Shown: positions 2,553 through 17,502 of the stretch, piece by piece | Layout of the letters: every line of letters starts with the position of its first letter | Numbering within the stretch: the stretch's first letter is position 1 | Origin: a virus | Lineage: Duplodnaviria; Caudoviricetes | Virus record (IMG/VR): IMGVR_UViG_3300028603_000002 | Coordinates: 107,909 to 171,908 of that record | Reading direction: 5' to 3' (one strand) | Length of the DNA: 64,000 nucleotides | Made by a program: the position numbers and the translations under genes | The notes under the pieces: generated by a model | Seen by the model: only the letters and a program-made list of their open reading frames with translations | What the model was told of the DNA's origin: nothing | The model's database searches: none

Positions 2553-2669
2553 AATAAAGTAGAATACTGAATATGTGATATACGTGTAGAAGAATAAAAG
2601 TATAGTAGTATAAGTAGTTATAAAGGTTAATGGAGTATACTGATATAAGATGTATAGATTAGTAGATTG

Positions 2670-3300: not shown

Positions 3301-3318
3301 TAATTAACTAAACATATT

Positions 3319-3483
3319 ATGGATAAATACGAGATTACAGTATGGAGATCTGATAAGGATAATGATCCTTGGGTGGAGTATGTATATGCTGATTCTAAAT
3401 CAGAAGCTTTTAAGAAAGGAAAGGAAATGTTTTATTCATTTCAGGTAGGTAGTATATATGATGTACTTGTAGTGAAAGTTTAA
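3319..3483 (+). CDS. small hypothetical protein (54 aa)
   Basis: Manual translation MDKYEITVWRSDKDNDPWVEYVYADSKSEAFKKG...; below the ORF-track cutoff. Confidence 0.5.
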   Translation: MDKYEITVWRSDKDNDPWVEYVYADSKSEAFKKGKEMFYSFQVGSIYDVLVVKV

Positions 3484-3659
3484 GTGTTCTGGAATGCCCG
3501 TGAGATTGTAACTATTCCCAGAATCTTGTTATCACTTGTTTTCCTTAGTTCTCCTGTGTTTTATTGTATATTGGATACCTTATTATACCTTTGCTGTATC
3601 TCTTATTATACGTTAGTTATACACGTTATACAACTATATGAAAAATAATTGGTTAAAAG

Positions 3660-3691
3660 TTTGGAAATCTGAAAAACTTTACTTATCTTTA
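3660..3691 (+). promoter_or_regulatory. early promoter
   Basis: TTTG-N20-TATCTTTA. Confidence 0.7.
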
Positions 3692-3735
3692 TTATGTAAT
3701 TAGGAAGTATTAGATAACTTAAAACACTATTAAAG

Positions 3736-4083
3736 ATGAAAAAGATATCATTAAAACAAGTAAAACAAATAGCCTCTGAAATTTCAAAGAGGTGGAAATT
3801 TGTTAAACACAGTTCATATTACAACTGTATTGATACTAAAACTGGACAGGAGTCAAATGTGGGAGGAGATTATAATTTTGCCAGTTATCATTTTAATAAT
3901 GCTGTTGAGGCAATGTATTTGAGTATGATTGGTGAGAACGCGTTGTATCTTGATTGGAGTACAGTGGGTGTGAAAGAATCTGAGGAACGCAAATCCTACA
4001 TTTACAAAATACGAAAAGAGATAGTTCGACTTCTTTGTGGTTTTGACTTTGCGGGTTGCGAAGTACTTAATTATCAAAAATAA
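3736..4083 (+). CDS. hypothetical phage protein
   Basis: 115-aa ORF after promoter. Confidence 0.7.
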   Translation: MKKISLKQVKQIASEISKRWKFVKHSSYYNCIDTKTGQESNVGGDYNFASYHFNNAVEAMYLSMIGENALYLDWSTVGVKESEERKSYIYKIRKEIVRLLCGFDFAGCEVLNYQK

Positions 4084-4102
4084 CTTAGTAACATTAAACA
4101 AA

Positions 4103-4318
4103 ATGGCAACAGAACAAAATATAAAAGACGGACACAGATATTTGATACAATTAAGTGTAAAGCAAGATAGCTTTTTGTTTAATATGTGGGATTACGTTGA
4201 AAGTGTAAAAACACTTAAAGAGGCAGAAAAGCTATGTGAAGGACTATATGATAAAAGCGTTCACAAACTTCAAATATGTGATTTAGTAACGAATACTATT
4301 GTTAGAACGTGGACGTAG
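4103..4318 (+). CDS. hypothetical phage protein
   Basis: Track ORF 4037-4318; likely start ATG 4103 (MATEQ) after an A-rich leader. Confidence 0.65.
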   Translation: MATEQNIKDGHRYLIQLSVKQDSFLFNMWDYVESVKTLKEAEKLCEGLYDKSVHKLQICDLVTNTIVRTWT

Positions 4319-4379
4319 CCTTGCAGCTAACATCCATATAAACTGTACATAAAATAGCAGAAATTAAAACAATAACATT

Positions 4380-4913
4380 ATGATAAACAATATAGTCATT
4401 AAAAATGAAACCCGTGAAATGGGGAGGAAAATAATTAAATACTTCAATGATCGAGGTATTGATACACGTATACTTAATGGCACAGCTTGCGCGGAAGAAA
4501 TGCATAACAATATATACTATGGAGTTATTGATGGTTATTTTGATAACTACACCTTAAAATATGTAGAAAGAGCAGGGGCTAAAATAATAACGCTACCTGA
4601 ATACCCAAAAGTAATGAGGGTAGCGCATGATAAATATTCTACCAGAACCCAACGTGTGGTCATAGGTACAGCAGATGCTGGCACCCATATCCAATATGTT
4701 GCATATAGAGATGCAAAAACATTAGATGATATACCATATCCCACTGAATTCAGGCTGTGGGACTATGCGGAAGATATTACAGAAACAGAACCTATCCTAA
4801 TAGGAAATAGAGAAGTAGAAGTAACTGAAGATGGAATAAAGGTAGGTTGTACACAGGTAGACAATGAAACAATAAAAAAGATATATAACTTAAAATTTAA
4901 AGATAATGAGTAG
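4380..4913 (+). CDS. hypothetical protein, N-terminal domain paralogous to 7100-7648
   Basis: Shared RGxDT...YYGVIDGxFDNYTL..VE.A.A.II.LP. Confidence 0.75.
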   Translation: MINNIVIKNETREMGRKIIKYFNDRGIDTRILNGTACAEEMHNNIYYGVIDGYFDNYTLKYVERAGAKIITLPEYPKVMRVAHDKYSTRTQRVVIGTADAGTHIQYVAYRDAKTLDDIPYPTEFRLWDYAEDITETEPILIGNREVEVTEDGIKVGCTQVDNETIKKIYNLKFKDNE

Positions 4914-5154
4914 ACAAACATTCGACACTAGAGTACCTGATATGGTACAAGCAGTACTAAAGAACAATGGTGCAACCTATATAAGGAGATACACCGAACC
5001 AAGAATCAAAGGATATAGAACTAAATGGTGGGGAATAAATAACATCTCCCTTAATGTAGAAGAAAGGATTAAGATGTTACCTGGTATAAAGAGAGTAGTA
5101 AATATACCTGGCAAAGTTCGGTCGCCACAATCATTTGCAGTGTTTTGGGAATAA
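4906..5154 (+). CDS. hypothetical phage protein
   Basis: 82-aa ORF overlapping the previous stop. Confidence 0.65.
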   Translation: MSRQTFDTRVPDMVQAVLKNNGATYIRRYTEPRIKGYRTKWWGINNISLNVEERIKMLPGIKRVVNIPGKVRSPQSFAVFWE

Positions 5155-5778: not shown

Positions 5779-6045
5779 ATGACAACTAATTGTACAACTT
5801 GTAGTAATTGCGGGCAGGTTATTGAAAATGTCATTATCATAAAAGGGAAACCTTATGGTAATACATGCGGTGCCAGACTATTAGGATTCAAAGAATTTCC
5901 TACTTGGTTTAAAGGTGGTGATTGGGATATGGCACATAAAGCGCATATCAAGTCACAGGAAGAGCAAAGTCAGTATTTTGAACGTAGACGAGAGATTACC
6001 CGCAAGCATTCTTTTCTGCTCTTGCAAGGTATGAACGATCGTTAA
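5779..6045 (+). CDS. Zn-ribbon protein, probably truncated by the island
   Basis: CSNCG...YGNTCG; the 3' end overlaps a convergent ORF where GC rises. Confidence 0.55.
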   Translation: MTTNCTTCSNCGQVIENVIIIKGKPYGNTCGARLLGFKEFPTWFKGGDWDMAHKAHIKSQEEQSQYFERRREITRKHSFLLLQGMNDR

Positions 6046-6526
6046 AAACTCTACAACCATAAATACCTTCAGTCGTCAACCTCTTAATCTCTTTCCAGGA
6101 CTTCACCCGCACTTTATCGCCGAGTTTAAAATCTGTAGACTGTTCACCTGCTTGTTTACCGTTACAGGACGTATCTGCCGGTGTTGCAAGTAATTGGTCA
6201 AGCTTGGCCTCGATGCGGTTTAGCAAATCCATCAACTCGTCATCTTGCACGGATACGAGGACTTTGGCATCTTGCGGTGCTTCCGCTGGCTCGGGGTATT
6301 TTTCAAAGAATAGAGTGTAATTACCGTCATTAAGGACCGATTTCCAAAATGAATAGTCCTCCGGGGTTTCAAACCAGTCAAATCCGCCATTTATTCTGCC
6401 AGTGGTCCGCCTCTTCTCAAACACGCTCACATCTCTTGGATTACCCTGCGTCACCTGATGCTCTAACATCTTATGAACAATTGGGTCTGCAATGTTTTTA
6501 AGGTCGCCTTTGTATGAACATTTCAT
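5996..6526 (-). CDS. hypothetical phage protein
   Basis: 176 aa; GGFDWFETPEDYSFW and FKLGDKVRVK motifs typical of phage accessory proteins. Confidence 0.7.
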   Translation of the reverse strand: MKCSYKGDLKNIADPIVHKMLEHQVTQGNPRDVSVFEKRRTTGRINGGFDWFETPEDYSFWKSVLNDGNYTLFFEKYPEPAEAPQDAKVLVSVQDDELMDLLNRIEAKLDQLLATPADTSCNGKQAGEQSTDFKLGDKVRVKSWKEIKRLTTEGIYGCRVFNDRSYLARAEKNACG

Positions 6527-6555
6527 TTTGCTTGATTTTTATGTGTGAATTAATG

Positions 6556-7089
6556 TTATTCTTCCTCCTCCCACTCAATCAACGGACAGTGGTCGTCTTT
6601 TAATTTCTTCAGGCCATGTCCTACTGCTTTAAAGCTCTGACCTGCTTTAGATTCGCGGTTCCTCAACTTTTCAGGTAGTGCTTCGAAAAAGAGGTAGCTT
6701 AATAAAACCGTAGCTAATGCCGCTACGGGAACGAGAGCAAATACCAGAGCTGCGGCCCATACTACTTGGGATGCTGTGTTTATATATCCCTGATCTAACT
6801 GAATCAATGCAGGCATAATGGAGATTATCAAATGAGTCAGGCCGATGCCCCATAATGCCTTAGTGCAATACATACTATGCCATGTAGGTTTAGTAGTATC
6901 TTTATCAAAATAAGACAATATATATGCTATAGAATAGTATAACACCCCCGGTATTGCAGTCACTAAGAGAAGTATAATCCCCACTAGCCCTTTCCATGTA
7001 AGGCTACACCAGTTAGTAGGATAAGAGTATGGATTACCTTCAGTAAACTGCCAGGCTTTTACGAATAGGTTGTTTTTACTCAGTTTCAT
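6556..7089 (-). CDS. membrane protein
   Basis: 177 aa with three hydrophobic stretches. Confidence 0.7.
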   Translation of the reverse strand: MKLSKNNLFVKAWQFTEGNPYSYPTNWCSLTWKGLVGIILLLVTAIPGVLYYSIAYILSYFDKDTTKPTWHSMYCTKALWGIGLTHLIISIMPALIQLDQGYINTASQVVWAAALVFALVPVAALATVLLSYLFFEALPEKLRNRESKAGQSFKAVGHGLKKLKDDHCPLIEWEEEE

Positions 7090-7099
7090 AGCGGGGTAT

Positions 7100-7648
7100 T
7101 TAGCTTTTGATTATTACCTGGTCAACGCCCAATTTCTCGGCTATTTCCTCCATTGTAAGCTCCATTATAATTTTGGGCGGAGTGTATTTGTACTCGTCGG
7201 TGTAGAATAGATCGTCAATGCTACCTTTGATGTACTTATCTGCCTTCTCGGGCGCCAAAACTGAATCCCGCGAGATTATTCCGTCCTTTTTGGCAAATAA
7301 ATATAGAAGGTGCTTGTTTTCGCTGACTGAGTCGCGACCATATAACCAACGATACCCCAACTGAATAAGCCTCACCTGAATAGCTCTTGAAAGTTCAGCG
7401 GTAGGCACATTAAACACATAGCCGCCGATTGAAGGTAATTCAATTATTTCAGCGTTGGCTTTCTCTACTTGACGCAATGTGTAATTATCGAATTCCCCGT
7501 CAATAACTCCGTAATACCTGTAGGAATCACCATCAGATTTACAAGAGGTTCCTACAAGGTGGCGTGTATCAAATCCCCGACTTTTCCAATACTCAATGAC
7601 CTTTGCCCCGTGGTCGGGCGTTAGTGCTTCAATTACTTGGTTTTTCAT
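7100..7648 (-). CDS. hypothetical protein, paralog of 4380-4913
   Basis: Shared N-domain; C-terminal ELTMEEIAEKLG motif. Confidence 0.75.
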   Translation of the reverse strand: MKNQVIEALTPDHGAKVIEYWKSRGFDTRHLVGTSCKSDGDSYRYYGVIDGEFDNYTLRQVEKANAEIIELPSIGGYVFNVPTAELSRAIQVRLIQLGYRWLYGRDSVSENKHLLYLFAKKDGIISRDSVLAPEKADKYIKGSIDDLFYTDEYKYTPPKIIMELTMEEIAEKLGVDQVIIKS

Positions 7649-8160
7649 TTTACAAAAGTTTTTGTTCGTTCTAAAATCTCATCCCCCAACATCCTGCGAA
7701 CAATATCGGCAGTTTGGCGTTGGTTGGCCGCTTTGTCTGAGGCAGTACGGTCAGCAGCAGCAGCAGCAGCAGAAGAATTACCACAAACAGCACAATAAGC
7801 AGCATCAGCAGCAGCAGAACGATAACCAACAGTAACAGCAGCAGCAGCAGCAGCACGATAAGCAGCCTGCAACTCTTCCTCCGTAAGCAATCCCTCTCCG
7901 TAGGCAATAGCCGCATCAACACCCTTTATGCTGCGCGCATCTTTCATCAAATGCCTGACCGTGTTCGCACAGTGTCCTGCGCAGCCGACTAATTTACGGC
8001 GATAAACGCCCGCTTTCTTCGCCCACCATAGCAGCCAATCGCCACGATGGCAGTCGGCTAAGGTTTGGGTAGGGGTGCGGTCGCCAAGCCAGTCAATGGC
8101 ATCTTCGCAGGCAGGACCTAAATGGCCTTCGTCTGATAGTAGAAATTCTCTGAATGTCAT
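7645..8160 (-). CDS. Imm5-like / Ala-rich helical phage protein
   Basis: ACEDAIDW...CHRGDWLLW...AAAAA...QTADIVR; GCA repeats encode poly-Ala. Confidence 0.65.
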   Translation of the reverse strand: MTFREFLLSDEGHLGPACEDAIDWLGDRTPTQTLADCHRGDWLLWWAKKAGVYRRKLVGCAGHCANTVRHLMKDARSIKGVDAAIAYGEGLLTEEELQAAYRAAAAAAVTVGYRSAAADAAYCAVCGNSSAAAAAADRTASDKAANQRQTADIVRRMLGDEILERTKTFVK

Positions 8161-8244
8161 AATATAGATTTAATTACAATGTAATTTAGCAAGAAATTCC
8201 ATTTATCACAAATTGTGGGTGCGCAATTTACTATTTAAAATGAT

Positions 8245-8282
8245 AAAAAAGAAGGTACACTACCTTTATAGTTCACCTTCTT
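8245..8282 (-). terminator. possible intrinsic terminator
   Basis: AAGAAGGT...ACCTTCTT imperfect hairpin preceded by an A-run on the plus strand. Confidence 0.4.
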
Positions 8283-8305
8283 GAAAACACGACCCGACAA
8301 AACTT

Positions 8306-8581
8306 TTACAGTCGGAATTGGCCGATGAGTTCATCAGCATGGTGACACTCAGCATGACAGTCGCAATTTCCAACACAGCTGTTTCTTGCGGATAGCCAGA
8401 GATGATTAATCAATGGCAATTGGGAAGATTTCGACAACCCTGATAACAAGTCATTCATGCTAATTACTAACCATGATTTACTATCATGAGTTTGTACATG
8501 AATTTCTTCCACTATGTCGTCATCTAACACAAACTTAATCCTGTTACCATTATCTTTACATTCATAAATTACTTGTTCCAT
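8306..8581 (-). CDS. hypothetical protein
   Basis: 91-aa ORF. Confidence 0.55.
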   Translation of the reverse strand: MEQVIYECKDNGNRIKFVLDDDIVEEIHVQTHDSKSWLVISMNDLLSGLSKSSQLPLINHLWLSARNSCVGNCDCHAECHHADELIGQFRL

Positions 8582-8610
8582 TTCTTTTTGTTACCTTAAA
8601 TTTCAAAATT

Positions 8611-8700
8611 GCCAGTAGGGTGAGGGTCGAACTCACAATATAGCTTCTGAATAAAGTGGGTTGCCAATTATTATCCTTTTCCCTAACGCTCCTAGACCAG
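8611..8700 (-). tRNA. tRNA-like remnant (T-arm only)
   Basis: Minus strand GTGAG-TTCGACC-CTCAC is a perfect T-arm; no convincing full cloverleaf. Confidence 0.25.
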
Positions 8701-8767
8701 TCTTATACTTTGTTACTTGATGCTGGTTTTAATTAAGCCTTTCTAATTAGAACCTTTTGATTATACT

Positions 8768-8800
8768 ATAAATATAAGAAAGATCTTTCAAAGTACCAAA
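8768..8800 (-). promoter_or_regulatory. early promoter
   Basis: Minus strand TTTGGTACTTTGAAAGATCTTTCTTATATTTA. Confidence 0.6.
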
Positions 8801-8842
8801 TTATTTTGAATAAACTTACGTAATCAGTTTGATGGTACAGCA

Positions 8843-8872
8843 CTGGAGCTCCTAAGTGGAGCTCCAGATTTT
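8843..8872. terminator. perfect 10-bp hairpin at the left end of the cassette array
   Basis: CTGGAGCTCC-taagt-GGAGCTCCAG. Confidence 0.55.
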
Positions 8873-9011
8873 AAAAATATATGGTATGGTGCAGAGTTGC
8901 AAACTCTGTTTTGCCAACAAAAGAACTATGGCTAACAGCACCTAACCTCAATAAATTATCACGGTATTCATCGGCTGTAAAGTTTTCAAAGTTTGTGGTT
9001 TCTATATTCAT
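8871..9011 (-). CDS. small cassette ORF (46 aa) reading through an attC left arm
   Basis: Manual translation MNIEPQTLKTF...LRLGAVSHSSF. Confidence 0.35.
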   Translation of the reverse strand: MNIETTNFENFTADEYRDNLLRLGAVSHSSFVGKTEFATLHHTIYF

Positions 9012-9035
9012 TTGTACTAATTTTAAGTTGAAGAT

Positions 9036-9057
9036 GTTAAGCTTATACGGATGTTAG
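9036..9057 (+). repeat. attI-like repeated site, copy 1 of 17
   Basis: GTTAAGCTTATACGGATGTTAG; other copies at 9600, 9959, 10228, 10476, 10826, 11481, 11789, 12083, 12356, 13130, 13390, 13733, 14208, 15611, 16326, 16666. Confidence 0.8.
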
Positions 9058-9284
9058 CAAACATTTTCCAACCCACACCGCACTTGAATATTTCCAAGTT
9101 CCAATTCTCTTTCAATATCTTCAATATCTCTCCAACAATCTACTCCAACTGTATAACTATACCATCCACAAAAATCTTCAATACTATCATCAAAATAACC
9201 TTCTGAATATATTTCATATTCAAAACCATCGACAAATTCTTCTATTGTCGGTATTCTATATCCTTTTCTTAATTCTTCTGCCAT
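9054..9284 (-). CDS. cassette gene, hypothetical
   Basis: 76 aa; stop codon lies inside the GTTAG core. Confidence 0.75.
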   Translation of the reverse strand: MAEELRKGYRIPTIEEFVDGFEYEIYSEGYFDDSIEDFCGWYSYTVGVDCWRDIEDIERELELGNIQVRCGLENVC

Positions 9285-9297
9285 CGCTAAAAACGTT

Positions 9298-9391
9298 TGC
9301 TAACAAGGTATATATGCAATACCCTATTAAGGTTTGTACTAAATTTTAAAGTTTGGTGCAAGGGTGCTGCATATATACCCAACCGTTAGCC
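9298..9391 (+). repeat. complete attC-like site
   Basis: GCTAAC...GGTATATATGCAATACCCT / AGGGTGCTGCATATATACC...AACCGTTAGC (17/19 paired). Confidence 0.8.
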
Positions 9392-9607
9392 ACCATTTGA
9401 CGACCGTTGTACTTCGACTGCAATTTCTTCAAGCAATTCAAGTATTTCATTTGCCCAAGTGTGGTCTATGTTTATTTTTGATACCTGAGTGTCAAATCCG
9501 AGCTTTTTAGCAACATCCATATCGTGTCGCATTTCGCCCTTGAATCTCCTGTATTCTTCTTTTTTCTTTGTGATGAGTTCTAATACTTTTTCCATAACCG
9601 TTATCAT
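9386..9607 (-). CDS. cassette gene, hypothetical helical protein
   Basis: 73-aa ORF. Confidence 0.65.
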   Translation of the reverse strand: MITVMEKVLELITKKKEEYRRFKGEMRHDMDVAKKLGFDTQVSKINIDHTWANEILELLEEIAVEVQRSSNGG

Positions 9608-9622
9608 TTATACAGGTGTTGA

Positions 9623-9913
9623 CTACTCACCAATATAGTGTGTTTCAAAATCATAACCATCATTTACCTTTTGAAGTTTACCTTCGTCAAGATTTATGAT
9701 TTCTCTTATATTTTTAAGTTTAGTGTCAGCAATTTCTTTTGTGTGTATTTCAATATCAATACCTCCAGAACCGTCACCATCAATTTGAATTGGCAATAAT
9801 CTGTTTGCACCAACATCACCACAATATTGTATTTTTCTGAGAGCAATCATAAAATCTTTTAAATCTTCATCAGAAATTGCTGTAATTCGCAAGTCAATAA
9901 ATTTTCGTTCCAT
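9623..9913 (-). CDS. cassette gene, hypothetical
   Basis: 96 aa with a DGDGS motif. Confidence 0.7.
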   Translation of the reverse strand: MERKFIDLRITAISDEDLKDFMIALRKIQYCGDVGANRLLPIQIDGDGSGGIDIEIHTKEIADTKLKNIREIINLDEGKLQKVNDGYDFETHYIGE

Positions 9914-9995
9914 ATTGTCGTTTTAAGTCGTTAAAATTATGTGCGCATAGCCATAACCGTTACCATTTATACGGGTATTGTAGCACATACGCTCA

Positions 9996-10199
9996 CTACT
10001 TTTTCGGTTTCAATTTACCGTCTGCACATTTAGGGCAGTATATTGTTTGATGTTTTGTAATTCTCCACCCTTTTTTACTCCACGCACTGGCAGCATCATA
10101 CGGGTCGCAATCCATTTCTCTTCCAATAGTTCTACACTTATGGCACATTATTGTGTTTTCAGTAGTACAATGTTCGTATAGTTCATGTATTTCATCCAT
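9996..10199 (-). CDS. cassette gene, Zn-ribbon protein
   Basis: CHKC...GW...CPKC. Confidence 0.7.
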   Translation of the reverse strand: MDEIHELYEHCTTENTIMCHKCRTIGREMDCDPYDAASAWSKKGWRITKHQTIYCPKCADGKLKPKK

Positions 10200-10250
10200 C
10201 TCCGTTCGTTTTAAGATGTTAGTAATAGTTTATAAGGGTATTATCGGCAA

Positions 10251-10463
10251 TTATTCCCAAGTAATTTCCACCATTTTTGCATCTTCCATCATTTTCATTA
10301 ATCCGCAAAATTCTCTCCAATGATATTCAGTTATTGTTTCACCTATACTATTACTAAGTTTATTTAAACAGTTGTATATCTCTGTATTAATATAACTACC
10401 GCTAACAACAGGTGTACTTGATGCTTGTGTTTCTGCCATTTGTAAGTTCGGTTCTTTTTTCAT
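10251..10463 (-). CDS. cassette gene reading through an attC left arm
   Basis: PVVSGS is the antisense translation of ACTACCGCTAACAAC. Confidence 0.65.
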   Translation of the reverse strand: MKKEPNLQMAETQASSTPVVSGSYINTEIYNCLNKLSNSIGETITEYHWREFCGLMKMMEDAKMVEITWE

Positions 10464-10508
10464 GTTGATTAGTTGGTTGGTTTATACGGGTGTTATAGGC
10501 AATTGCCA

Positions 10509-10757
10509 CTAAAGTATCTCTCTACATTCGGGACAATAATTTTCAGCAATTTGTTGAACCCATTTTTTATTTTTATGTTCACATCGTGGCAACTGTTCGC
10601 TTTGCCGTACAACATTGTATAAATCCAATTGCTTACGTGCTTCAATCAATTGAGCTTCCAACCAATCCTTGTAGTTGTCGAGGTCAAAGTGTATGTCTGT
10701 TTCACCAACCGTTTCAGGATGGTCAAGTCTAAATTCTTCTTCAAATGTATATCTCAT
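10509..10757 (-). CDS. cassette gene partly encoded in an attC loop, C-terminal Zn ribbon
   Basis: YNVVRQSEQL...CEH...CPEC. Confidence 0.7.
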   Translation of the reverse strand: MRYTFEEEFRLDHPETVGETDIHFDLDNYKDWLEAQLIEARKQLDLYNVVRQSEQLPRCEHKNKKWVQQIAENYCPECREIL

Positions 10758-10803
10758 AATTTCTGTTTTTTAATTCGCCCTACGCATACAATCGACCGTT
10801 AGC
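10605..10803 (+). repeat. large attC-like site containing coding sequence
   Basis: TACAAC-ATTGTAT ... ATACAAT-CGACCGTTAGC arms. Confidence 0.6.
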
Positions 10804-10855
10804 GTTCAGCCTATCGCTGCGGGTAGTTAAGTTTATACGGGTGTTAGGTGTAATG

Positions 10856-11134
10856 TCAACACCATTCTACGCTAATCACTTTTAGTTTACACCCATCAAC
10901 ATCATTTATTACATGCCCTTCCTTGGGGTGAGAGTCTGTAATTGATATTGGTTCATTTGTCGGTTCACACCCCATTTTGAACAATAGTCTTGAACCTTTA
11001 GGTAAAAATGCTTTTGAGGTCTTTGTGATGAACCAAGTTTTTAACTTTTCGTTACCCCAAGCAAATCGAACAACGCTACACCTAACATCCGCTATAGTGC
11101 ACGTATGTTCTGTTGTTTTTGTAATATTTTGCAT
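10856..11134 (-). CDS. cassette gene starting inside an attC loop
   Basis: HTCTIADVRCS is the antisense translation of the attC left arm. Confidence 0.65.
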   Translation of the reverse strand: MQNITKTTEHTCTIADVRCSVVRFAWGNEKLKTWFITKTSKAFLPKGSRLLFKMGCEPTNEPISITDSHPKEGHVINDVDGCKLKVISVEWC

Positions 11135-11199
11135 AACTCAAAGTTTATTTCTGTTTGGATGCGTTATTGAAGCCACGCACCATAGCTTTACCGTTAGGA
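11080..11199 (+). repeat. complete attC-like site
   Basis: CCTAAC..GCTATAGTGCACGT / ACGCACCATAGC..ACCGTTAGG. Confidence 0.75.
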
Positions 11200-11203
11200 G
11201 AAG

Positions 11204-11461
11204 TTAAAGAGAAAACCAATCACTTTCCTCTTGTCTACTCAGAAGCTCCTCAACAGCCTCTTTGGTAGCAGGACAAGCGGAGTAAAAACAATTCTTTGCT
11301 TTCACCTCAAGTTGCTTCAGCTTTTCAAAGTCTCCGTCCACTAATTGAAAAAGAAACAGAGTTTGCTCGTTGCTGTGATTAGTCCGATCGGTTAACCAAT
11401 TAAGTCGTTCTTTATCAAGCTCGTACTTATAGGTATCTTTGCGTCCATACTTCAATTCCAT
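11204..11461 (-). CDS. cassette gene, hypothetical
   Basis: 85-aa ORF. Confidence 0.7.
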   Translation of the reverse strand: MELKYGRKDTYKYELDKERLNWLTDRTNHSNEQTLFLFQLVDGDFEKLKQLEVKAKNCFYSACPATKEAVEELLSRQEESDWFSL

Positions 11462-11511
11462 ATTCTATTAGCTTTACGATGTTACTGTTTATACGGGTGT
11501 TAGACGCAACG

Positions 11512-11769
11512 CTAAGAAACCAACCTACCTTCGACATTTTCTTTCATTTTGATTAACTCATCCCTATAACCAGAACCACCATCTTGGTTGGAATAGGGCA
11601 TTTGCAAGTGTTCATTTATTTTTACCAACAACTTAGCTGTTTTCACTTTGTTATCCTGATGCTGGTCAATCCATTTATTGTATTTACGAATAACTTTGTT
11701 TAGTTTGGTTCTACCTTCTTTCCACCAAGATATACCTACATTTTCATCCCACTCTACTATTTTTTCCAT
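11512..11769 (-). CDS. cassette gene, hypothetical
   Basis: 85-aa ORF. Confidence 0.7.
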   Translation of the reverse strand: MEKIVEWDENVGISWWKEGRTKLNKVIRKYNKWIDQHQDNKVKTAKLLVKINEHLQMPYSNQDGGSGYRDELIKMKENVEGRLVS

Positions 11770-11817
11770 ATTCCGTTCGCTTTACGATGTTACTGTTTAT
11801 ACGGGTGTTGTGTGTAA

Positions 11818-12012
11818 TTAAAGCAAGCCATCGTTATTTTCGCCCATCATCGTATCAACGGCTTTTTCAGCATCTTTAGCCGCACTTTTAAGCAGCTTCT
11901 TTGTGTTTTCAGGTTCGTTTCCTGTGGCTACATCTACCACGTCTTTTACAATTGCAACAGGTGTAAGTGCTGTTTTTACTGCTGCTGAAATTACGTTTGT
12001 TAAGAATCCCAT
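11818..12012 (-). CDS. cassette gene, small amphipathic protein
   Basis: Likely start MGFLTNVISAAVKTALTPVAIVKDVVDV at 12012 (track ORF extends to 12174). Confidence 0.65.
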   Translation of the reverse strand: MGFLTNVISAAVKTALTPVAIVKDVVDVATGNEPENTKKLLKSAAKDAEKAVDTMMGENNDGLL

Positions 12013-12112
12013 TTGATTAAAATTAACTGCTGCCAACAATGTAGTAAGGCACAGGCAGCGTTTGTGCTTATCGCTGTGGGTGGTTGAGTTTATACGAGGG
12101 GTAGGTGTAATA

Positions 12113-12316
12113 CTAAAGATTCCTACTAACCAACCCTGTTCCATTACACCAAGTACAATCTTCTTCATTACCAAAATCGTCTATTTCAATTTTACCGCCA
12201 CCCCAACAAACAGTACATTCCAATAATTCCTTAGTGGAAGTACTGCTGCCAACAGCACCTAAATCGCTATTGGCGGTGCTGTGGTTGTTCTTACTTTCGT
12301 TCTTACTTTCGTTCAT
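12113..12316 (-). CDS. cassette gene, DnaJ-type Zn-finger (CxxCxGxG x2)
   Basis: CTVCWGGG and CTWCNGTG; LGAVGSS comes from an attC arm. Confidence 0.7.
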   Translation of the reverse strand: MNESKNESKNNHSTANSDLGAVGSSTSTKELLECTVCWGGGKIEIDDFGNEEDCTWCNGTGLVSRNL

Positions 12317-12380
12317 TACGGTTTAAGTTTTACCGAGTTTCCTAAATTGAGGGTAGTTATGTTTATACGGGTGTTGTGCT

Positions 12381-12785
12381 TCATGCAAGGAAACTCCCGT
12401 GCTTAATTATGAAGTACAGTTTATTAGGGTCTCCGCCTAAATCAGGCTTGCCCCATCCGATCTCAATTCCTTTGTGTTCCATTTTCAATATCCTTTCCTT
12501 ATCAGTTGATTTTGGATAACCCAATGTCATTGTGTTTGTAAGGAATGGCTTAAAACCAATCATACTTCTTTTCAATTTATCCCCTGCAATACTTGACAGA
12601 TAGGCGTTTATAGATTGTTTGTCCAAGTAATCCCAATCATATCCAGACGTGTACTTAAAAACCTTCTTATAGTCAAATACAAGTCTTTTAAACCAGTAAT
12701 CGTTTATGTCTCGATAATCTTCGGTTTTTACGCCCGATTTGGTCATGTCGAACCATTTTTTTTTAAGTGATAATTGCAAATTCAT
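12381..12785 (-). CDS. cassette gene, ASCH/PUA-like domain protein
   Basis: LSLKKKWFDMTKSGVKTEDYR...TLGY...GKPDLG. Confidence 0.75.
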   Translation of the reverse strand: MNLQLSLKKKWFDMTKSGVKTEDYRDINDYWFKRLVFDYKKVFKYTSGYDWDYLDKQSINAYLSSIAGDKLKRSMIGFKPFLTNTMTLGYPKSTDKERILKMEHKGIEIGWGKPDLGGDPNKLYFIIKHGSFLA

Positions 12786-12807
12786 TTTGTATCAGTTAAG
12801 CACGAAA

Positions 12808-12936
12808 GCACAACAATTGCTATAAAACATAGGGCGTTCGTGCGGTTATTAAAGTGTAGGGTTGTTTTTCAGGTGTTCGGTGTTTTCGAACAATTCGGCT
12901 ATCTATACCCTACGTTTCATGGCATAGCCGTTAGCG
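12808..12936 (+). repeat. complete attC-like site
   Basis: GCACAAC..TGCTATAAAACATAGGG / CCCTACGTTTCATGGCA..GCCGTTAGC (14/17 paired). Confidence 0.8.
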
Positions 12937-12937
12937 T

Positions 12938-13126
12938 TCATTTTGACGACGCTCTCCGTACTTCTTCATTAAGCACATCGTAATTGTCTTTAATGTACGC
13001 CTTTACATCGCCACTGCATTTGTTATTGTCATACAACCAAATCAGATAAGACGCAGGGACATTTATCATTTTATAACCTTGATATTTTCCCCAAGGCATA
13101 GGGCTTTCATCTGTTAAGTTTGCCAT
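12938..13126 (-). CDS. cassette gene, DUF3820-like
   Basis: Likely start MANLTDES at 13126; MPWGKYQG...VPASYLIWL. Confidence 0.75.
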   Translation of the reverse strand: MANLTDESPMPWGKYQGYKMINVPASYLIWLYDNNKCSGDVKAYIKDNYDVLNEEVRRASSK

Positions 13127-13163
13127 TTTGTTTAAGTTTATACTGGTGTTGTAGCACATACGA

Positions 13164-13379
13164 TCACTGCACTTTTGGTCTCCAATGTGTGATTTCGTAA
13201 TCAACATCACCATACTGTCTGTAATCGTAATGTCCAATTCCTGCCTCAATCCACCAAGTATCCCCCAAGTAGTAGCCAACAAGTATCTCATCATTATAGT
13301 CTTGCCTTAGCTCACAATCAATAGGCTCATCGTTTGCGTCTAATTCAGGCAGTCTTTCATTTACATTTATCCAATTCAT
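13164..13379 (-). CDS. cassette gene, DUF551-like
   Basis: MNWINVNERLP...ITHWRP. Confidence 0.8.
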   Translation of the reverse strand: MNWINVNERLPELDANDEPIDCELRQDYNDEILVGYYLGDTWWIEAGIGHYDYRQYGDVDYEITHWRPKVQ

Positions 13380-13417
13380 ATCAGTTCACGTTAAGTTTAT
13401 ACGGGTGTTAGCAGCAA

Positions 13418-13657
13418 TTATGCCCTTTTAGGATAGTGCTTCATACATTTGAAACAAGCCATTTCATCATATAGTGGTTTTAACTCAACATTGCAATCAG
13501 GGCATAACTGTTCGCTTTGCCCTACAACATCATGTATGTGTAAGGCTATGTTTAGTGCTTTATCAGCAAGTTTGTAAACAGTTGTAGTTCTAGCAAGCTG
13601 TTGTGTTTGCATTTGATGTTCCTTTATTTCTTCAAGTATCTTAATTATATCTTCCAT
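13418..13657 (-). CDS. cassette gene partly encoded in an attC loop, Zn ribbon
   Basis: LHIHDVVGQSEQLCPDC...CFKC. Confidence 0.7.
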   Translation of the reverse strand: MEDIIKILEEIKEHQMQTQQLARTTTVYKLADKALNIALHIHDVVGQSEQLCPDCNVELKPLYDEMACFKCMKHYPKRA

Positions 13658-13712
13658 TTCTAATAATGTTTAGTGTGAATATTCGCCCTACATATACACC
13701 CGGCCTTTAGCG
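13519..13712 (+). repeat. large attC-like site containing coding sequence
   Basis: TACAAC..TGTATGTGTAAGGC / GCCCTACATATACA..GCCTTTAGC. Confidence 0.65.
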
Positions 13713-13764
13713 TCCAGCCTATCGCTGTGGGTGATTAAGTTTATACGGGTGTTATGTGCAAGCA

Positions 13765-14154
13765 CTACTGACCTGCTTCTTTATCAAGTTTTTTATAATG
13801 TCGTATAACATACGCAAGTTTATCTCTAAAATTAACCCTTCGCAATTGTTGAATAATGTCGCTGAATTTTTGTGCTTCATTATCAGGTATCATCGAAATT
13901 AGTATATCATCGTGTTCGCAATGTATAGTTTCCATAAAATCATCTTGTGTCAAGCCTTCATCACAATGGTCATACATTTTTAATCTTGATGCTATTTCAG
14001 CACAATATTTGTGAGTTTTCCAGTCGTAAACTTGACCATCGTATTTGTGAGTAGATTTTATATAAGTATCACCTTTAGGTATTCTACACGCACAAAAATT
14101 ACAACTATGTTCTTTAATGGCTTTCGTTTCTTTTGGGTATGTTAATGTTTCCAT
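13765..14154 (-). CDS. cassette gene, Zn-binding hypothetical
   Basis: KAIKEHSCNFC..IPKGDTY...WKTHKYC. Confidence 0.75.
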   Translation of the reverse strand: METLTYPKETKAIKEHSCNFCACRIPKGDTYIKSTHKYDGQVYDWKTHKYCAEIASRLKMYDHCDEGLTQDDFMETIHCEHDDILISMIPDNEAQKFSDIIQQLRRVNFRDKLAYVIRHYKKLDKEAGQ

Positions 14155-14238
14155 ATTTTAATCAAATTTTAGTTGTTAATAACCCGCTACTACATATATC
14201 GGATGCGGTTAAGTTTATACGGGTGTTGTAGGCAAGCT

Positions 14239-14484
14239 CTACTTACATCTGAAGTGAGTGAGTACTGCCATCGGATGTTCATCTTCATATCTACATTCCG
14301 TACCATCATCAAACCTACACAGGCAGTTTCGTTTTGCGTACTCATTGAATATTGATTCATTACCTTCAAATTCGAGCCAGCCACTAACAGCAAATAAATC
14401 CAATATTCTGTCAGCGGTATTGGCAACGCTTTCACCTATTATACACTTGTTTAATAGGTCGATAATTTGTTCTCTTTTTTCCAT
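14239..14484 (-). CDS. cassette gene, hypothetical
   Basis: ILDLFAVSGWL reads through the attC left arm GCCAGCCACTAAC. Confidence 0.65.
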   Translation of the reverse strand: MEKREQIIDLLNKCIIGESVANTADRILDLFAVSGWLEFEGNESIFNEYAKRNCLCRFDDGTECRYEDEHPMAVLTHFRCK

Positions 14485-14503
14485 ACTGTCTTTATTATTT
14501 AAG

Positions 14504-14719
14504 TTAGTTGTAATGTCTCCATACTAAGCCACTCGCCTTTATATTTACCAGTGTAAAAGGGTATATTGCAAAAGCTCTCCAAAAGAAGGAAACTTCGGCA
14601 TCAAGTGCGCTTAGTATCCCGATAGTGGCGTACCACATAATCCATAATCCCACTATAAGCACCACCGCTAACAATCTACGAAATGCATTCCTATTGGTTT
14701 CTTTATAATTTTCATCCAT
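14504..14719 (-). CDS. small membrane protein
   Basis: Two hydrophobic segments; contains CCACCGCTAAC. Confidence 0.6.
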   Translation of the reverse strand: MDENYKETNRNAFRRLLAVVLIVGLWIMWYATIGILSALDAEVSFFWRAFAIYPFTLVNIKASGLVWRHYN

Positions 14720-14766
14720 GATTCTATGTTTTGTGTTTATTTATTAAATTCTATGGTTCAACGCAT

Positions 14767-14997
14767 CTAATACTCTTCCGTTGGCAGAAATACAAGTTGG
14801 CCGTTATCCCATCCGCTCAGGTTAATTTCAATCGGCAAAAGTGACTCCTTGCCGTCATATATGCCGTGCGTGTATTGATGCAAAAACGCTAACTGCTCAT
14901 TCTCTGTCAACTCGCGGGTAACCTTAAACGACCCAGAGCCTATCGTTTCGCCAGTGTCACGTTGGTAAACTTTGAATCTGTATGCAAATCTTTGCAT
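14767..14997 (-). CDS. hypothetical protein
   Basis: 76-aa ORF. Confidence 0.6.
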   Translation of the reverse strand: MQRFAYRFKVYQRDTGETIGSGSFKVTRELTENEQLAFLHQYTHGIYDGKESLLPIEINLSGWDNGQLVFLPTEEY

Positions 14998-15015
14998 TCT
15001 AATTTTTCTCTAATG

Positions 15016-15393
15016 TTAGGCACAAGCACTACCGACACGCTCCAAAATAGCATCTGCGTGACAAGGAGAAGAAAGCGAGCAAAAACACGCTAAATCCTTT
15101 CCTTTTAGTTCGGTAATGCTTGGCGGAGTTGGCAAATAAGGTGCAATTGCTTTTAATTCACCATCAAGCCATCGGCCGTATAAATCAACAATATCTTTTG
15201 TTTCAAATCCACCTGAATAACTCCACATTATCCAAGGGTCTAATATTTTCCGATTAGTCGAGTAGCATTGAATAAAGCCATCATGTGTTAATCGAAATGG
15301 ATTTCCCCATTTAGTAGGTCTCCCTACATACTTTGCGTTTTCGGGCATTCTCCATCCCTTTGTTCGCCTTCTTTGTATTCGTTTCATAATCAA
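15016..15393 (-). CDS. DUF4326-like protein
   Basis: YVGRPTKWGNPF...ELKGKDLACFC...CHADAILE. Confidence 0.85.
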   Translation of the reverse strand: MIMKRIQRRRTKGWRMPENAKYVGRPTKWGNPFRLTHDGFIQCYSTNRKILDPWIMWSYSGGFETKDIVDLYGRWLDGELKAIAPYLPTPPSITELKGKDLACFCSLSSPCHADAILERVGSACA

Positions 15394-15399
15394 AATTTA

Positions 15400-15600
15400 T
15401 CACTTATTTGGTAGTTCTGGCAACTCCGTCCAATGAGAAGGGAACACGCTCTCCCCATTTACTACCCATGTTTTGCCATCTTTGTGTAAATGTCCAACCC
15501 TCATTATAGAGTCTTCACCTGTTTCTTGAAGTATTAGCAACACTTCTACTTCCGTATCGGGGGTATTGTAATTTACATCAAACCAAATTGTTTCATTCAT
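15400..15600 (-). CDS. DUF551-like protein
   Basis: WFDV...P...EVLL...SHWTELPELP. Confidence 0.75.
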   Translation of the reverse strand: MNETIWFDVNYNTPDTEVEVLLILQETGEDSIMRVGHLHKDGKTWVVNGESVFPSHWTELPELPNK

Positions 15601-15638
15601 ATCTGTTCACGTTAAGTTTATATAGGTGTTAGCAAACA

Positions 15639-16028
15639 TTAGGTAAGTGATATGTAATATTTTTTCTTTTGATTTTCGACTGCATCAACAAACCAACTTG
15701 GTAAGTTGTATTCAGTACATATTTTTTCAAACTCTATTTTAGGTAAGTAGCCTTTTGCTCTATCTTCTGCATACATTTTTATATGTAGGTTTACACTACC
15801 TTTCGTCTTTAATAGAGTTTTTAACTTTTCAGGTTCACAAGTTGGTTTTATTACACCATTAGTATCATATAGGTAAAAACATTCCTTTGCGGTTTTACCG
15901 TTTTTATCAAATTGTATCAATTCAATTCCTTTTTTATTATGATAGTATTCAGTACCATCAAAAGAAAAAATATTAGATACAGATAAGTACCAATTATAGT
16001 CTCGCTCAAAGTTTTTGCTGTATTTCAT
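15639..16028 (-). CDS. cassette gene, hypothetical
   Basis: Likely start MKYSKNF at 16028; flanked by complementary cassette ends. Confidence 0.7.
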   Translation of the reverse strand: MKYSKNFERDYNWYLSVSNIFSFDGTEYYHNKKGIELIQFDKNGKTAKECFYLYDTNGVIKPTCEPEKLKTLLKTKGSVNLHIKMYAEDRAKGYLPKIEFEKICTEYNLPSWFVDAVENQKKKYYISLT

Positions 16029-16061
16029 AACGTTTGCTAACAAAGTGTATGTGTAATAAGG

Positions 16062-16277
16062 CTACTTATCTACTACCTTTTCAACTTTCAACTCATAAAG
16101 CTCACCTTTGTATTTAAACTGAACTTTTTCTTCAAGCTGTAAAAGGTGTTGAGCTACTGCGCCAACAGCCGTATCTGTTACATCATGTTTTGTTTGCCCC
16201 CAAGTTCCGTTCTTCAAAACTCTTCCAGCAAATAATCTACTCGTTAAAGGTGAGCAACCTACTTTAAAATCTGACAT
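16062..16277 (-). CDS. hypothetical phage protein
   Basis: VGCSPLTSRLFAG...KHDVTD.AV.AVAQHL, a recurrent phage family pattern. Confidence 0.75.
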   Translation of the reverse strand: MSDFKVGCSPLTSRLFAGRVLKNGTWGQTKHDVTDTAVGAVAQHLLQLEEKVQFKYKGELYELKVEKVVDK

Positions 16278-16354
16278 AATCTTTTTGTTTTAATACTGAC
16301 TACTTTACATTCCATATCAGTTTCCGTTAAGTTTATATAGATGTTGACAGCCAT

Positions 16355-16621
16355 TTATTGAAACCACTGCTTAATCTGTTCTGTTCTTTGTTCGATCATC
16401 TCATTAATCTTTGGCAGCAATGGATAATTAGTTTCGTCAATCCAAACAGTTTCAGACTTACCATCTTTGCCTAATATAACTGTCGGAGTTGCTACAGAAT
16501 AAATTTCTGTTCTTTTAGCGTGGAGTTGTTGCAACTGGTTATCGTTCAAGATCGCTTCTGAAATTAAACGGGGGCGAAGAGCGTATTTATTCAATGTGGA
16601 GTTTTTGTCGTTATTGTTCAT
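16355..16621 (-). CDS. cassette gene, hypothetical
   Basis: 88-aa ORF. Confidence 0.6.
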   Translation of the reverse strand: MNNNDKNSTLNKYALRPRLISEAILNDNQLQQLHAKRTEIYSVATPTVILGKDGKSETVWIDETNYPLLPKINEMIEQRTEQIKQWFQ

Positions 16622-16672
16622 TTCGGTATTTCGTTTTAATCTTCCGCGCTGGCATAGCGGATGACGTTAAGT

Positions 16673-16927
16673 TTATCCGGGGTTGATTGTGTCTTGAAAC
16701 TTCTTCCTCAATGCTGACATCATAGCCTCAATAGCCCTGGGCATTTTTTTCACAACTTCATCTTTTGTTCGGCCCTGAACGACAACACCCTTAAGCTCCT
16801 TAATAATTCCTATGAACAATCCGGTTTTCTCATTATGAATTATCACCCCAGTGAAATTCTTGGTTTGTGCTTGTCTTCCCATGATAAGTGCTTTTGATTG
16901 ATGTATGAAATTAATTAGCTTCCACAT
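16673..16927 (-). CDS. HicB-like antitoxin-fold protein
   Basis: ELKGVVVQGRTKDEVVKKMPRAIE; probable start at 16882. Confidence 0.6.
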   Translation of the reverse strand: MWKLINFIHQSKALIMGRQAQTKNFTGVIIHNEKTGLFIGIIKELKGVVVQGRTKDEVVKKMPRAIEAMMSALRKKFQDTINPG

Positions 16928-17219
16928 GTAGTCCGGATTTTTTGAACTTTTTTATAGCATTCCTGAGATTCAGAGCCGTAATGTAGTAGCACTCCTTCCG
17001 GAGAATTAATTTGTTCCGTTTAACGTAACTCCCAGTTAACGACTCTACCGCTATATCCACCTCCTCCAACGGAGCTTCTGTCACTACCCCATCATCCCAT
17101 TGATACACTGTATGCCCAGGCTTCAGTCGTCGTGTACCGATAAAGCGGACTTTTTTCTCCTCCGCGGGGGTAACAATTTGCTGTTCTTGTTTAATTTGAT
17201 CTGGCTTAATCTCCTTCAT
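16911..17219 (-). CDS. hypothetical phage protein
   Basis: 102-aa ORF. Confidence 0.7.
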   Translation of the reverse strand: MKEIKPDQIKQEQQIVTPAEEKKVRFIGTRRLKPGHTVYQWDDGVVTEAPLEEVDIAVESLTGSYVKRNKLILRKECYYITALNLRNAIKKFKKSGLHVEAN

Positions 17220-17291
17220 TGTTTTCCTTTTTTGTCAATGTAACGTGCAATAATTCATGTTTTCATAATTTTATCTTTTTAATTTGTACTA

Positions 17292-17323
17292 TAAAGATAT
17301 GAAAAATATTTCAAAGTACCAAC
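17292..17323 (-). promoter_or_regulatory. early promoter facing into the island and cassette array
   Basis: Minus strand TTGGTACTTTGAAATATTTTTCATATCTTTA. Confidence 0.6.
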
Positions 17324-17449
17324 TATGAAGCGAAAGATGTTTCTAAATTTGACCCGACCGCGGGAAAATTTATAATATCAGGTACAAAGATAAAATTTAT
17401 TGTGTAATTATCGAAATTTTCAATTCAAATAATTTTCCTACATGTTTAT

Positions 17450-17481
17450 TTGGATATCTCCTAAAAATTCATTATCTTTAT
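17450..17481 (+). promoter_or_regulatory. early promoter
   Basis: TTTGGATATCTCCTAAAAATTCATTATCTTTA. Confidence 0.7.
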
Positions 17482-17502
17482 TATGAAATAAAACAAGAAA
17501 CT

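Follow-up and report, generated by a model that had tools for sequence, protein, structure and literature searches.

A putative integron-like cassette array with candidate coding recombination sites in a large Bacteroidota phage genome

Integrons, as defined for the present comparison, exchange promoterless gene cassettes by a crossover at the G|TT of the R′ box, distal to the cassette open reading frame (ORF). A recombination site can also lend initiation signals or coding sequence to a cassette gene, as in ORF-11 of attI1 and in cassettes fused after the loss of attC. Clusters of attC sites lacking integrases (CALINs) have been reported in virulent phages, including a phage of the marine flavobacterium Polaribacter; these clusters of two or three sites were found with IntegronFinder/HattCI and served as substrates for recombination by IntI1 (Qi et al. 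2023, PMC9892861). In T4-type phages, promoter early stem-loops (PeSLs), which consist of sigma-70 early promoters and terminators, are exchanged by homology (Arbiol 2010, PMC2839356; Comeau 2014, PMC4122927). Here we analyse an array of small genes and hairpin-like sites in a 64,000-nucleotide (nt) stretch of DNA (hereafter referred to as the window), comprising bases 107909–171908 of the 171.9-kb virus record IMGVR_UViG_3300028603_000002, which has direct terminal repeats and is rated complete. The array probably belongs to an integron-like small-cassette system of large Bacteroidota phages in which hairpin arms are translated, and which in this genome is without its enzyme and partly decayed. 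This reading builds on the anatomy of the sites, their statistics and covariation, their association with an enzyme, natural breakpoints and module swaps, all of which we take as established. No published account of such a system was found in the literature searched.

The genes concerned form a minus-strand run at 8871–17219 (~25 genes), in which the right-hand cassette array (8871–16345, minus strand) comprises ~25 small co-oriented genes and 16 copies of a 15-mer, AACACCCGTATAAAC, on the coding strand. A left-hand array on the plus strand occupies 2262–5154 of the window, with one copy of the repeat at 4329–4343; it begins ~4 kb before the window, where five more copies lie, and ends near 5150, and the two arrays are therefore convergent. 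As in integrons, the cassettes are small and co-oriented, the sites are imperfect hairpins that have two paired boxes and the cores AAC and GTT, TAAC often includes the stop codon, cassette ends are complementary, gain and loss occur at the cores and, in relatives, a tyrosine recombinase of the Xer/IntI branch adjoins the array. An earlier note, made from the letters of the window, had proposed that seven ORFs of the right-hand run start within or cross attC-like hairpins, leaving recurring scar peptides in otherwise unrelated proteins. All seven are present on the minus strand, and each has an in-frame GTT codon, within a (C/A)TGTT(A/G) core, at the peptides named.

The strongest hairpin surrounds the start of ORF 10856–11134 (minus strand; 92 amino acids (aa), ..TIADVRCS..), which reads through the 3′ arm of a site at 11074–11204 (minus strand; 131 nt; GTT core at 11084–11086; E 1.9 with the covariance model described below). 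The 5′ arm is CCTAAC..AGCTATGGTGC (~11176–11199), the 3′ arm is GCACTATAGC..GGATGTTAGGTG, and the loop holds the ATG (11132–11134) and the first 16 codons of the ORF. The folding free energy of this hairpin is −25.9, versus −14.2 ± 2.8 in shuffles, none of 300 of which matched it. When each in-ORF arm was compared with the upstream intergenic segment, in the window only and against shuffles, the pairing was strong for this ORF and marginal for ORFs 13418–13657 (z −1.9), 14239–14484 and 8871–9011. Thus, the claims that the ORFs start in loops and read through paired arms hold firmly for one ORF and less well for the other six, of which three pair marginally and three have no partner in the window. 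Counted by type of support, one ORF has a strong window hairpin, four are supported through sites of relatives, one by a shared patch alone and one marginally.

The patch is common to two ORFs. In ORF 13418–13657 (minus strand; 79 aa), a leader, N1 (codons 1–44), is followed by the patch (13506–13530) and a zinc-ribbon body; the GTT core lies at 13526–13528, and the 3′ arm (~13531–13546) encodes ALHIHD. The junction upstream (13658–13764, minus strand) contains an AAC core and a copy of the repeat (13739–13753), and its 5′ arm GTGTATATGTAGGGCG (~13686–13701) pairs with the arm inside the ORF. The leader sits in the loop of this hairpin, in which the untranslated 5′ arm CATGTATGTGTAGGGC pairs with GCCTTACACATACATG, the ALHIHD codons. 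ORF 10509–10757 (minus strand; 82 aa) has the patch at 10591–10615, with GTT at 10611–10613, between a leader and a zinc-ribbon body that are both unrelated to those of ORF 13418–13657; the sequence after its GTT pairs, with one bulge, with the bases before the AAC at 10495–10505. The two patches are identical at 24 of 25 nt in ORFs that are otherwise unalignable. Because the repeat is inserted, these two sites extend over ~230–240 nt from AAC to GTT, and the loop of ~120–200 bp described in the earlier note fits ORF 10856–11134 and not this pair.

The arms of ORFs 10251–10463, 12113–12316, 8871–9011 and 13418–13657 are homologous to the 3′ arms of complete sites in relatives (contigs denoted by L and a number), and the window copies of these four ORFs are without the 5′ arm. 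ORF 10251–10463 (minus strand; 70 aa, ..STPVVSGS; arm at ~10396–10413) has a 20-codon leader and arm homologous to a complete coding site in L064 (4761–4898). Compared with L064, the window copy has a 22-nt deletion in the 5′ arm and a 3-nt indel that keeps the frame, and the bodies diverge past GTTA. ORF 12113–12316 (minus strand; 67 aa; a DnaJ-like CxxCxGxG zinc finger; arm TAGGTGCTGTTGGC at 12243–12262) and ORF 8871–9011 (minus strand; 46 aa; arm TAGGTGCTGTTAGC; GTT at 8934–8936) contain TAGGTGCTGTT[AG]GC, a sequence that L123 and L103 carry in the 3′ arms of complete sites. For ORF 8871–9011, the arm pairing has z −1.6, and a weak match to a complete site covers 8924–9064 (E 0.033). ORF 14239–14484 (minus strand; 81 aa; GCTGTTAGT; GTT at 14386–14388; z −1.5, reached in 6% of shuffles) is the least supported of the seven.

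Comparison with relatives separates these proteins into two halves. The homologues of ORF 13418–13657 are of two kinds: in one, the first ~41 residues are alike and the C termini are unrelated; in the other (P0001 and P0004), the same zinc-ribbon C terminus follows unrelated N termini. In the alignment of 21 homologues, the partner always switches at the VVG[RQ]SEQL patch. In nucleotide sequence, ~95% identity links the window to L064 from the 5′ arm through the leader to ..CATG[AG]TGTT, and from the next base the two are unrelated; with L071 the pattern is reversed, with no relationship upstream and ~92% identity from TGATGTT as far as the stop codon. Against L064, the leader has 36 identical, 6 synonymous and 2 non-synonymous codons of 44, followed by 0 of 30 identical; against L071, which has an unrelated leader, the zinc-ribbon body has 27 identical, 8 synonymous and 3 non-synonymous codons of 38. 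These counts indicate that both halves are coding, have been under purifying selection and were re-paired at GTT. The complement of the patch, ..CCTACAAC, comes after the body in L070, L071 and L072. Furthermore, in the family of ORF 10856–11134, the body is conserved from CSV[VI]RFAWGNEK, and the N termini, which are variable or swapped, are joined to it at ..V[RK]CS.

True starts downstream of the arms had been named as the observation that would speak against translated scars. In this family, the stretch from the arm to the conserved body is free of start codons, and the arm must therefore be translated; we infer from the sequences that the leaders of the read-through ORFs are translated likewise. 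The swaps support the proposal that the loop gives the start codon and N terminus and the cassette body the C terminus, producing chimeric genes; they do not extend to the de novo gene birth that had also been suggested. Read-through recurs in relatives, where 21 of 149 sites are long (127–144 nt) and hold the ATG of an ORF that runs at least 15 codons past GTT. In 17 of these 21, GTT is in codon phase (p = 1e-5), and the out-of-phase cases include lipoprotein-like signal peptides with TTG TTA. The read-through leaders are short and polar and end in ..L-[HGN]-I-[SAGP]-x-V.

Recurring peptides of this kind could arise more simply, as the linker motif of one paralogous family of small zinc-ribbon proteins or as chance GTT hexamers. 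Several of the proteins are indeed zinc ribbons or fingers with paralogues in both arrays, three of the seven arms are without a window partner and, by simple arithmetic, chance alone would give ~15 GTTRRRY-like heptamers over the two strands of 8 kb. Yet the patch is identical at 24 of 25 DNA positions, synonymous sites included, between unrelated flanks, and identity between relatives falls from ~95% to none within one codon. Moreover, the arms are homologous to non-coding hairpin arms elsewhere, and chance falls far short of explaining the frame bias and the flanking complementarity. This explanation is thus largely refuted, and we regard it as very improbable.

The site family is best seen in the relatives. 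In L064–L072, the junctions consist of a stop codon (often inside TAAC), ~5 nt, an arm such as GGTATATG.., a loop, the complementary arm, ~2 nt and GTTA. The consensus of nine sites contains 24 pairs, 12 of which show compensatory changes, and the covariance model built from these nine also detects many sites of relatives outside its building set. In an alignment of 149 sites, which was fitted to the model and so inflates pairing somewhat, four types of pair are seen at each position of the upper stem. AAC and GTT cores occur in 148 of the 149 and TAAC in 142, and the positions flanking the cores are variable and often depart from the RYYY and RRRY of the integron consensus RYYYAAC/GTTRRRY.

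The window contains one fully canonical site, at 9292–9396 (minus strand; 111.7 bits, E 5e-23), in which a 19-bp stem encloses a 35-nt loop, with GCTAAC 5 nt before the stem and GTTAGC 2 nt after it. It thus shows the R″-L″-loop-L′-R′ fold of integron sites with AAC and GTT cores, whereas most other window sites are truncated. Weaker model matches cover 14660–14791, 8924–9064, 12805–12941 and 11074–11204. Three junctions form long hairpins: 9285–9385 (−36.9 kcal/mol), 12786–12937 (−34 kcal/mol) and 13658–13764 (−28.8 kcal/mol). The second of these corresponds to a non-coding hairpin junction at 12805–12941 (minus strand; GCTAAC...GTTGTGC; model E 0.11). Since 5′ arms have been lost in the window copies, the common site type here is an AAC core joined to the short box ACCCGTATAAAC. 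As a separate observation, the weak match at 14660–14791 (E 0.004) involves ORF 14504–14719, in which GTT is out of phase and read as TTG TTA (Leu-Leu), and the product is small, hydrophobic and membrane-like.

In L071, a 268-aa tyrosine recombinase is encoded just past the cassettes. Its best-matching families are XerA/integron-integrase at 181 bits (cut-off 220) and TIGR02249 at 169 (cut-off 265), and it scores 111 with NF011946 (cut-off 435). Among solved structures, XerA is the nearest, and IntI4 comes second, with an alignment in two pieces; the enzyme appears to be without the IntI-specific insert. We found 137 relatives of this recombinase in IMG/VR. Among 80 recombinase loci that were fetched, the covariance model detected 313 sites, and an independent nhmmer profile gave 115 matches, all on the strand of the enzyme (113 upstream, 2 downstream and 37 within 1 kb). 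Oriented association of sites with a tyrosine recombinase was found in at least 55 of the 80 loci. Some of the contigs that bear the recombinase have phage genes in common with this genome at 30–56% identity. Flavobacteriaceae chromosomes (L169, L181, L216, L218, L224 and others) encode an enzyme that is 41–53% identical, with related site arrays just downstream of it on the opposite strand, tail to tail, whereas in the phages array and enzyme are on the same strand. The 268-aa Xer/IntI-like enzyme is a likely candidate for recombining these sites.

Turnover is visible between closely related contigs. Compared with a near-identical contig, L065 carries a single additional gene between copies of a 13-nt direct repeat ending in ..ATAAC, and L066 carries five additional genes, flanked by a 58-nt site present in duplicate. 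In the rearranged contigs L076, L077 and L099, homology stops twice at ..TATAAC| and once at ..TTTGTTA|. The natural breakpoints are thus ..AAC| (three events and one insertion) and ..GTTA|. The AAC core is used at least as often as GTT for whole-cassette exchange, and leader and body therefore usually move together.

A further signature joins the two sides of a gene. Between the stop codon of a gene and AAC lie 8–14 variable bases that pair with a TGTT-led sequence on the 5′ side of that gene; a reverse-complement partner with a score of at least 20 is present there for 6 of 22 window copies (0.18 in shuffles), and none of the 22 has one at that score on the 3′ side of the gene. In relatives, the 10 nt outside the cores are complementary across the gene body (at least 8 of 10) in 46% of 72 flanking pairs; by the same test, the two arms of a single site match in 1.4% of cases and random pairs in 2.4%. 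Complementarity of a cassette's 5′ end to its own 3′ inverse core is likewise found in integrons.

Examples in the window are specific. For gene 9054–9284 (minus strand), 9052–9067 pairs with 9290–9305, and it is the GTT-side extension of the canonical site 9292–9396 that pairs with bases past the stop of this gene. The cassette of gene 15639–16043 (15627–16042, minus strand) has TGTTAGCAAACGTTA at 16028–16042 and its complement at 15627–15641, and the pairing extends to 15627–15646 with 16023–16042. These two genes are unrelated, yet their outer arms are identical. Inside ORF 10856–11134, 11077–11091 pairs with 10838–10852, directly after the ORF's own stop, and at the long junction the GTT-side extension TGTTGTGCTT (12806–12815) pairs with AAGCACAACA past the stop of gene 12381–12785. 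Complementarity across a gene and not within a site requires a circular intermediate that was resolved inside the site. Read from these patterns, the cross-gene complementarity would be the footprint of circular cassettes with one self-paired site.

With these features in hand, the array might be taken as a set of ordinary integron attC sites, a CALIN usable by bacterial IntI. The R″-L″-loop-L′-R′ geometry, the AAC/GTT cores, the stop inside TAAC and the complementary cassette ends all agree with this, as does the recombination of CALINs of virulent phages by IntI1 (PMC9892861), and the array resembles those CALINs as a site cluster without integrase in a phage genome of lytic type. We consider it most unlikely, however. 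Integrons have an IntI with its specific extra domain beside the array; here there is none, and the relatives' 268-aa enzyme falls under the integron-integrase cut-offs (169 of 265 for TIGR02249 and 111 of 435 for NF011946) and is encoded on the strand of the array, at its 3′ end. Whole cassettes are frequently exchanged at the AAC core directly past the stop codon, and the genes are therefore oriented opposite to classical cassettes. In addition, the outer arms pair over 8–16 nt rather than 7, and many cassettes hold their own start region, with start codon and translated leader, inside the site. The description of the published phage CALINs mentions neither a dedicated phage recombinase nor large arrays or coding through sites (PMC9892861). 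The attI1 ORF-11 is a short separate ORF and cassette fusions are accidental, whereas here an in-frame leader of 16–48 residues is found on many unrelated bodies. The sites are thus attC-like, as had been claimed, and depart from canonical attC in enzyme and orientation.

The 15-mer itself behaves as a local element. At three or fewer mismatches, AACACCCGTATAAAC has 18 matches versus 1.7 expected; of these, 17 fall inside the two arrays, including ten exact copies, and all share the orientation of the genes. It always lies 5–14 nt past the stop codon of the upstream gene, at a variable distance (15 to ~100 nt) from the next ATG. In the right-hand array, the copies start, in plus-strand numbering, at 9041, 9606, 9965, 10228, 10480, 10831, 11487, 11795, 12088, 12361, 13136, 13395, 13739, 14213, 15616 and 16331. 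The exact 15-mer has single, chance-level matches in IMG/VR and is nowhere multi-copy in other contigs; it is missing from all fetched relatives at two or fewer mismatches, apart from unrelated near-matches, and fits no Rfam family. A profile of the repeat searched with nhmmer revealed no inverted copies above noise, and the inverted partner is therefore the variable arm with TGTT. A conserved box, GTATAAAC, sits 15–25 nt before many start codons, even where the window hairpin is gone, and may have been kept for expression. A host promoter on either strand was considered for the repeat, since its complement TAAGTTTA is near TAnnTTTG, and dropped because the spacing is lost in the GTTACTGTTTATAC copies.

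The main competing explanation places the function of these sites at the level of RNA or transcription, as promoter, terminator or regulatory cassettes like the PeSLs of T4-type phages, with shuffling as a by-product of homologous recombination. Each site would then be a processing or stabilising stem-loop with a promoter box in a polycistronic early transcript. Several findings fit: the motif separates every pair of small early-type genes and without exception follows the direction of transcription; the GTATAAAC box is retained 15–25 nt ahead of many starts whose hairpin is gone; the phage is without a recombinase; and the coding strand folds better than its complement, as G·T combinations greatly outnumber A·C on it (517 versus 18). 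The array also shares with PeSLs the repeated composite motifs that flank ORFan genes in hyperplastic regions, with indels and swaps between close relatives, and PeSLs are documented to mediate such indels (PMC4122927, PMC2839356). On the other hand, the breakpoints here fall exactly at the 3-nt cores rather than anywhere in the repeat, the arms are complementary across genes and not within a site, and a tyrosine recombinase is tightly associated, in orientation, at 55 or more of the 80 loci; PeSLs have no core-precise breakpoints, cross-gene complementarity, recombinase or translation. The stems are not followed by a U-run, and the aligned copies and junctions show no sigma-70-type −35/−10 or Bacteroidota TAnnTTTG pattern at a fixed spacing, and so no sign of an early promoter beside a terminator. 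Moreover, no sigma factor is encoded in the genome (PF04542), and the box occurs in just 12–41 of 150 sites of relatives. We therefore hold this explanation to be unlikely, although it keeps an appreciable chance.

The integron-like interpretation has its own difficulties. The excess of G·T over A·C on the coding strand fits an mRNA hairpin as well as the folding of single-stranded DNA that we infer for the sites. The link between enzyme and sites is correlative, and the turnover was seen in contigs of relatives rather than in this phage. Only one window site, 9292–9396, fits the hairpin model strongly, and the arms of ORFs 10509–10757, 10251–10463 and 12113–12316 have no partner in the window. 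Finally, no recombinase was found in this complete genome with PF00589 (E ≤ 1), PF00239 or PF01797, or by tblastn with the relatives' enzyme. The genome likewise encodes no serine recombinase and no Y1 (HUH) transposase; the absence of PF01797 also sets the array apart from repetitive extragenic palindromes (REP/REPIN) mobilised by REP-associated tyrosine transposases (RAYT). Given the missing recombinase and the collapse of most sites to AAC plus ACCCGTATAAAC, the array of this phage is probably a relic or dependent on an enzyme supplied in trans.

Within the integron-like interpretation, the coding strand of a complete site would begin with a stop codon and a variable outer arm, followed by AAC and ~5 nt; an inner arm, a loop and a second inner arm would come next, and then ~2 nt, the GTT core and another variable outer arm. 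The complementary outer arms around one gene body would be the remnant of an integrated circular cassette with one self-paired site, and the 268-aa Xer/IntI-like tyrosine recombinase at which the relatives' arrays end would be the likely enzyme. At some sites, the loop would carry the start codon and first 16–48 codons of the downstream gene; the 3′ inner arm and GTT core would then be translated, GTT usually as valine, giving the recurring x-V-[SVRG]-x-S peptides. Recombination at AAC would move leader and body as one unit, and recombination at GTT would re-pair leaders and bodies in frame to give chimeric small proteins. More tentatively, the translated GTT core may be a built-in protein-shuffling joint in phase 0, combining a library of leaders with a library of bodies, in an array serviced in trans by co-infecting relatives; we rate this extension as possible but doubtful.

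If the shuffling joint exists, it would be a viral counterpart of phase-compatible exon shuffling, diversifying small early proteins of host takeover or anti-defence. More generally, large Bacteroidota phages would own an integron-like exchange platform with a simpler Xer-type enzyme and a site that doubles as coding sequence. Such a platform would explain the turnover of many small ORFan early phage genes, offer a concrete mechanism for making chimeric proteins in a single recombination step and challenge the view that hairpin-site recombination needs the IntI-specific domain. An array without recombinase and with collapsed hairpins is also useful for asking what decays first after enzyme loss, and which part of the site, such as the AAC core with the GTATAAAC box, persists for expression.

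Further read-through ORFs lie in the left-hand array outside the window (window coordinates −2546 to −1076). One contains HDAVERSEQCC, a third copy of the patch family; in another, with AAVSNSC, the arm at −1975 to −1960 pairs with bases past its own stop; and a further one has ANVSIS ahead of a DnaJ-like zinc finger. The hairpin model also matches L001 at 2209–2351 (E 2e-8).

Regarding the genome as a whole, when the array was compared with the phage collection by distant blastn, the only DNA matches were weak, three tiny ones to Cellulophaga phages, and tblastn of the protein of ORF 13418–13657 against that collection gave none; matches at the protein level tie the genome to large uncultured phage contigs. 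Almost no array protein among the 20 scanned falls in any Pfam family: the matches were DUF4326 and weak zinc-finger hits, with an epimerase and an amidase outside the array. ARAGORN found no tRNA, and an Rfam scan of 8000–17500 found no match at E ≤ 1. The 3′ end of the right-hand array adjoins a 289-nt gap (8582–8870) with a perfect GC-rich hairpin, TCTGGAGCTCC..GGAGCTCCAGA (~8825–8866), and the minus strand at ~8607–8640 resembles a tRNA T-arm and 3′ acceptor strand (GTGAGTTCGACCCTCAC CCTACTGGCA), on which ARAGORN and Rfam are silent. At the convergence point of the arrays, 5996–8160 (minus strand) holds four consecutive ORFs of 171–182 aa, none with a Pfam match, in the spot where relatives would have the recombinase.

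Relatives identified in IMG/VR through a neighbouring 620-aa gene were rejected as useful, as they are just 33% identical and have other repeats. Two of these contigs, L061 and L063, carry five copies of a different 35-nt repeat, AATCCAATTTTA...CCTATATTTAAGTGTTGAAA, which includes a TAnnTTT box of the Bacteroidota type and is probably a promoter motif of these contigs themselves. In L064 (9340–11273) and L066, an intact thymidylate synthase gene (366 aa) is followed by a NUMOD3-like gene, and in L065 (8221–9890) thymidylate synthase is called as two pieces (196 and 109 aa) with a different neighbour; this difference between L064 and L065 could reflect homing-endonuclease or intron variation.

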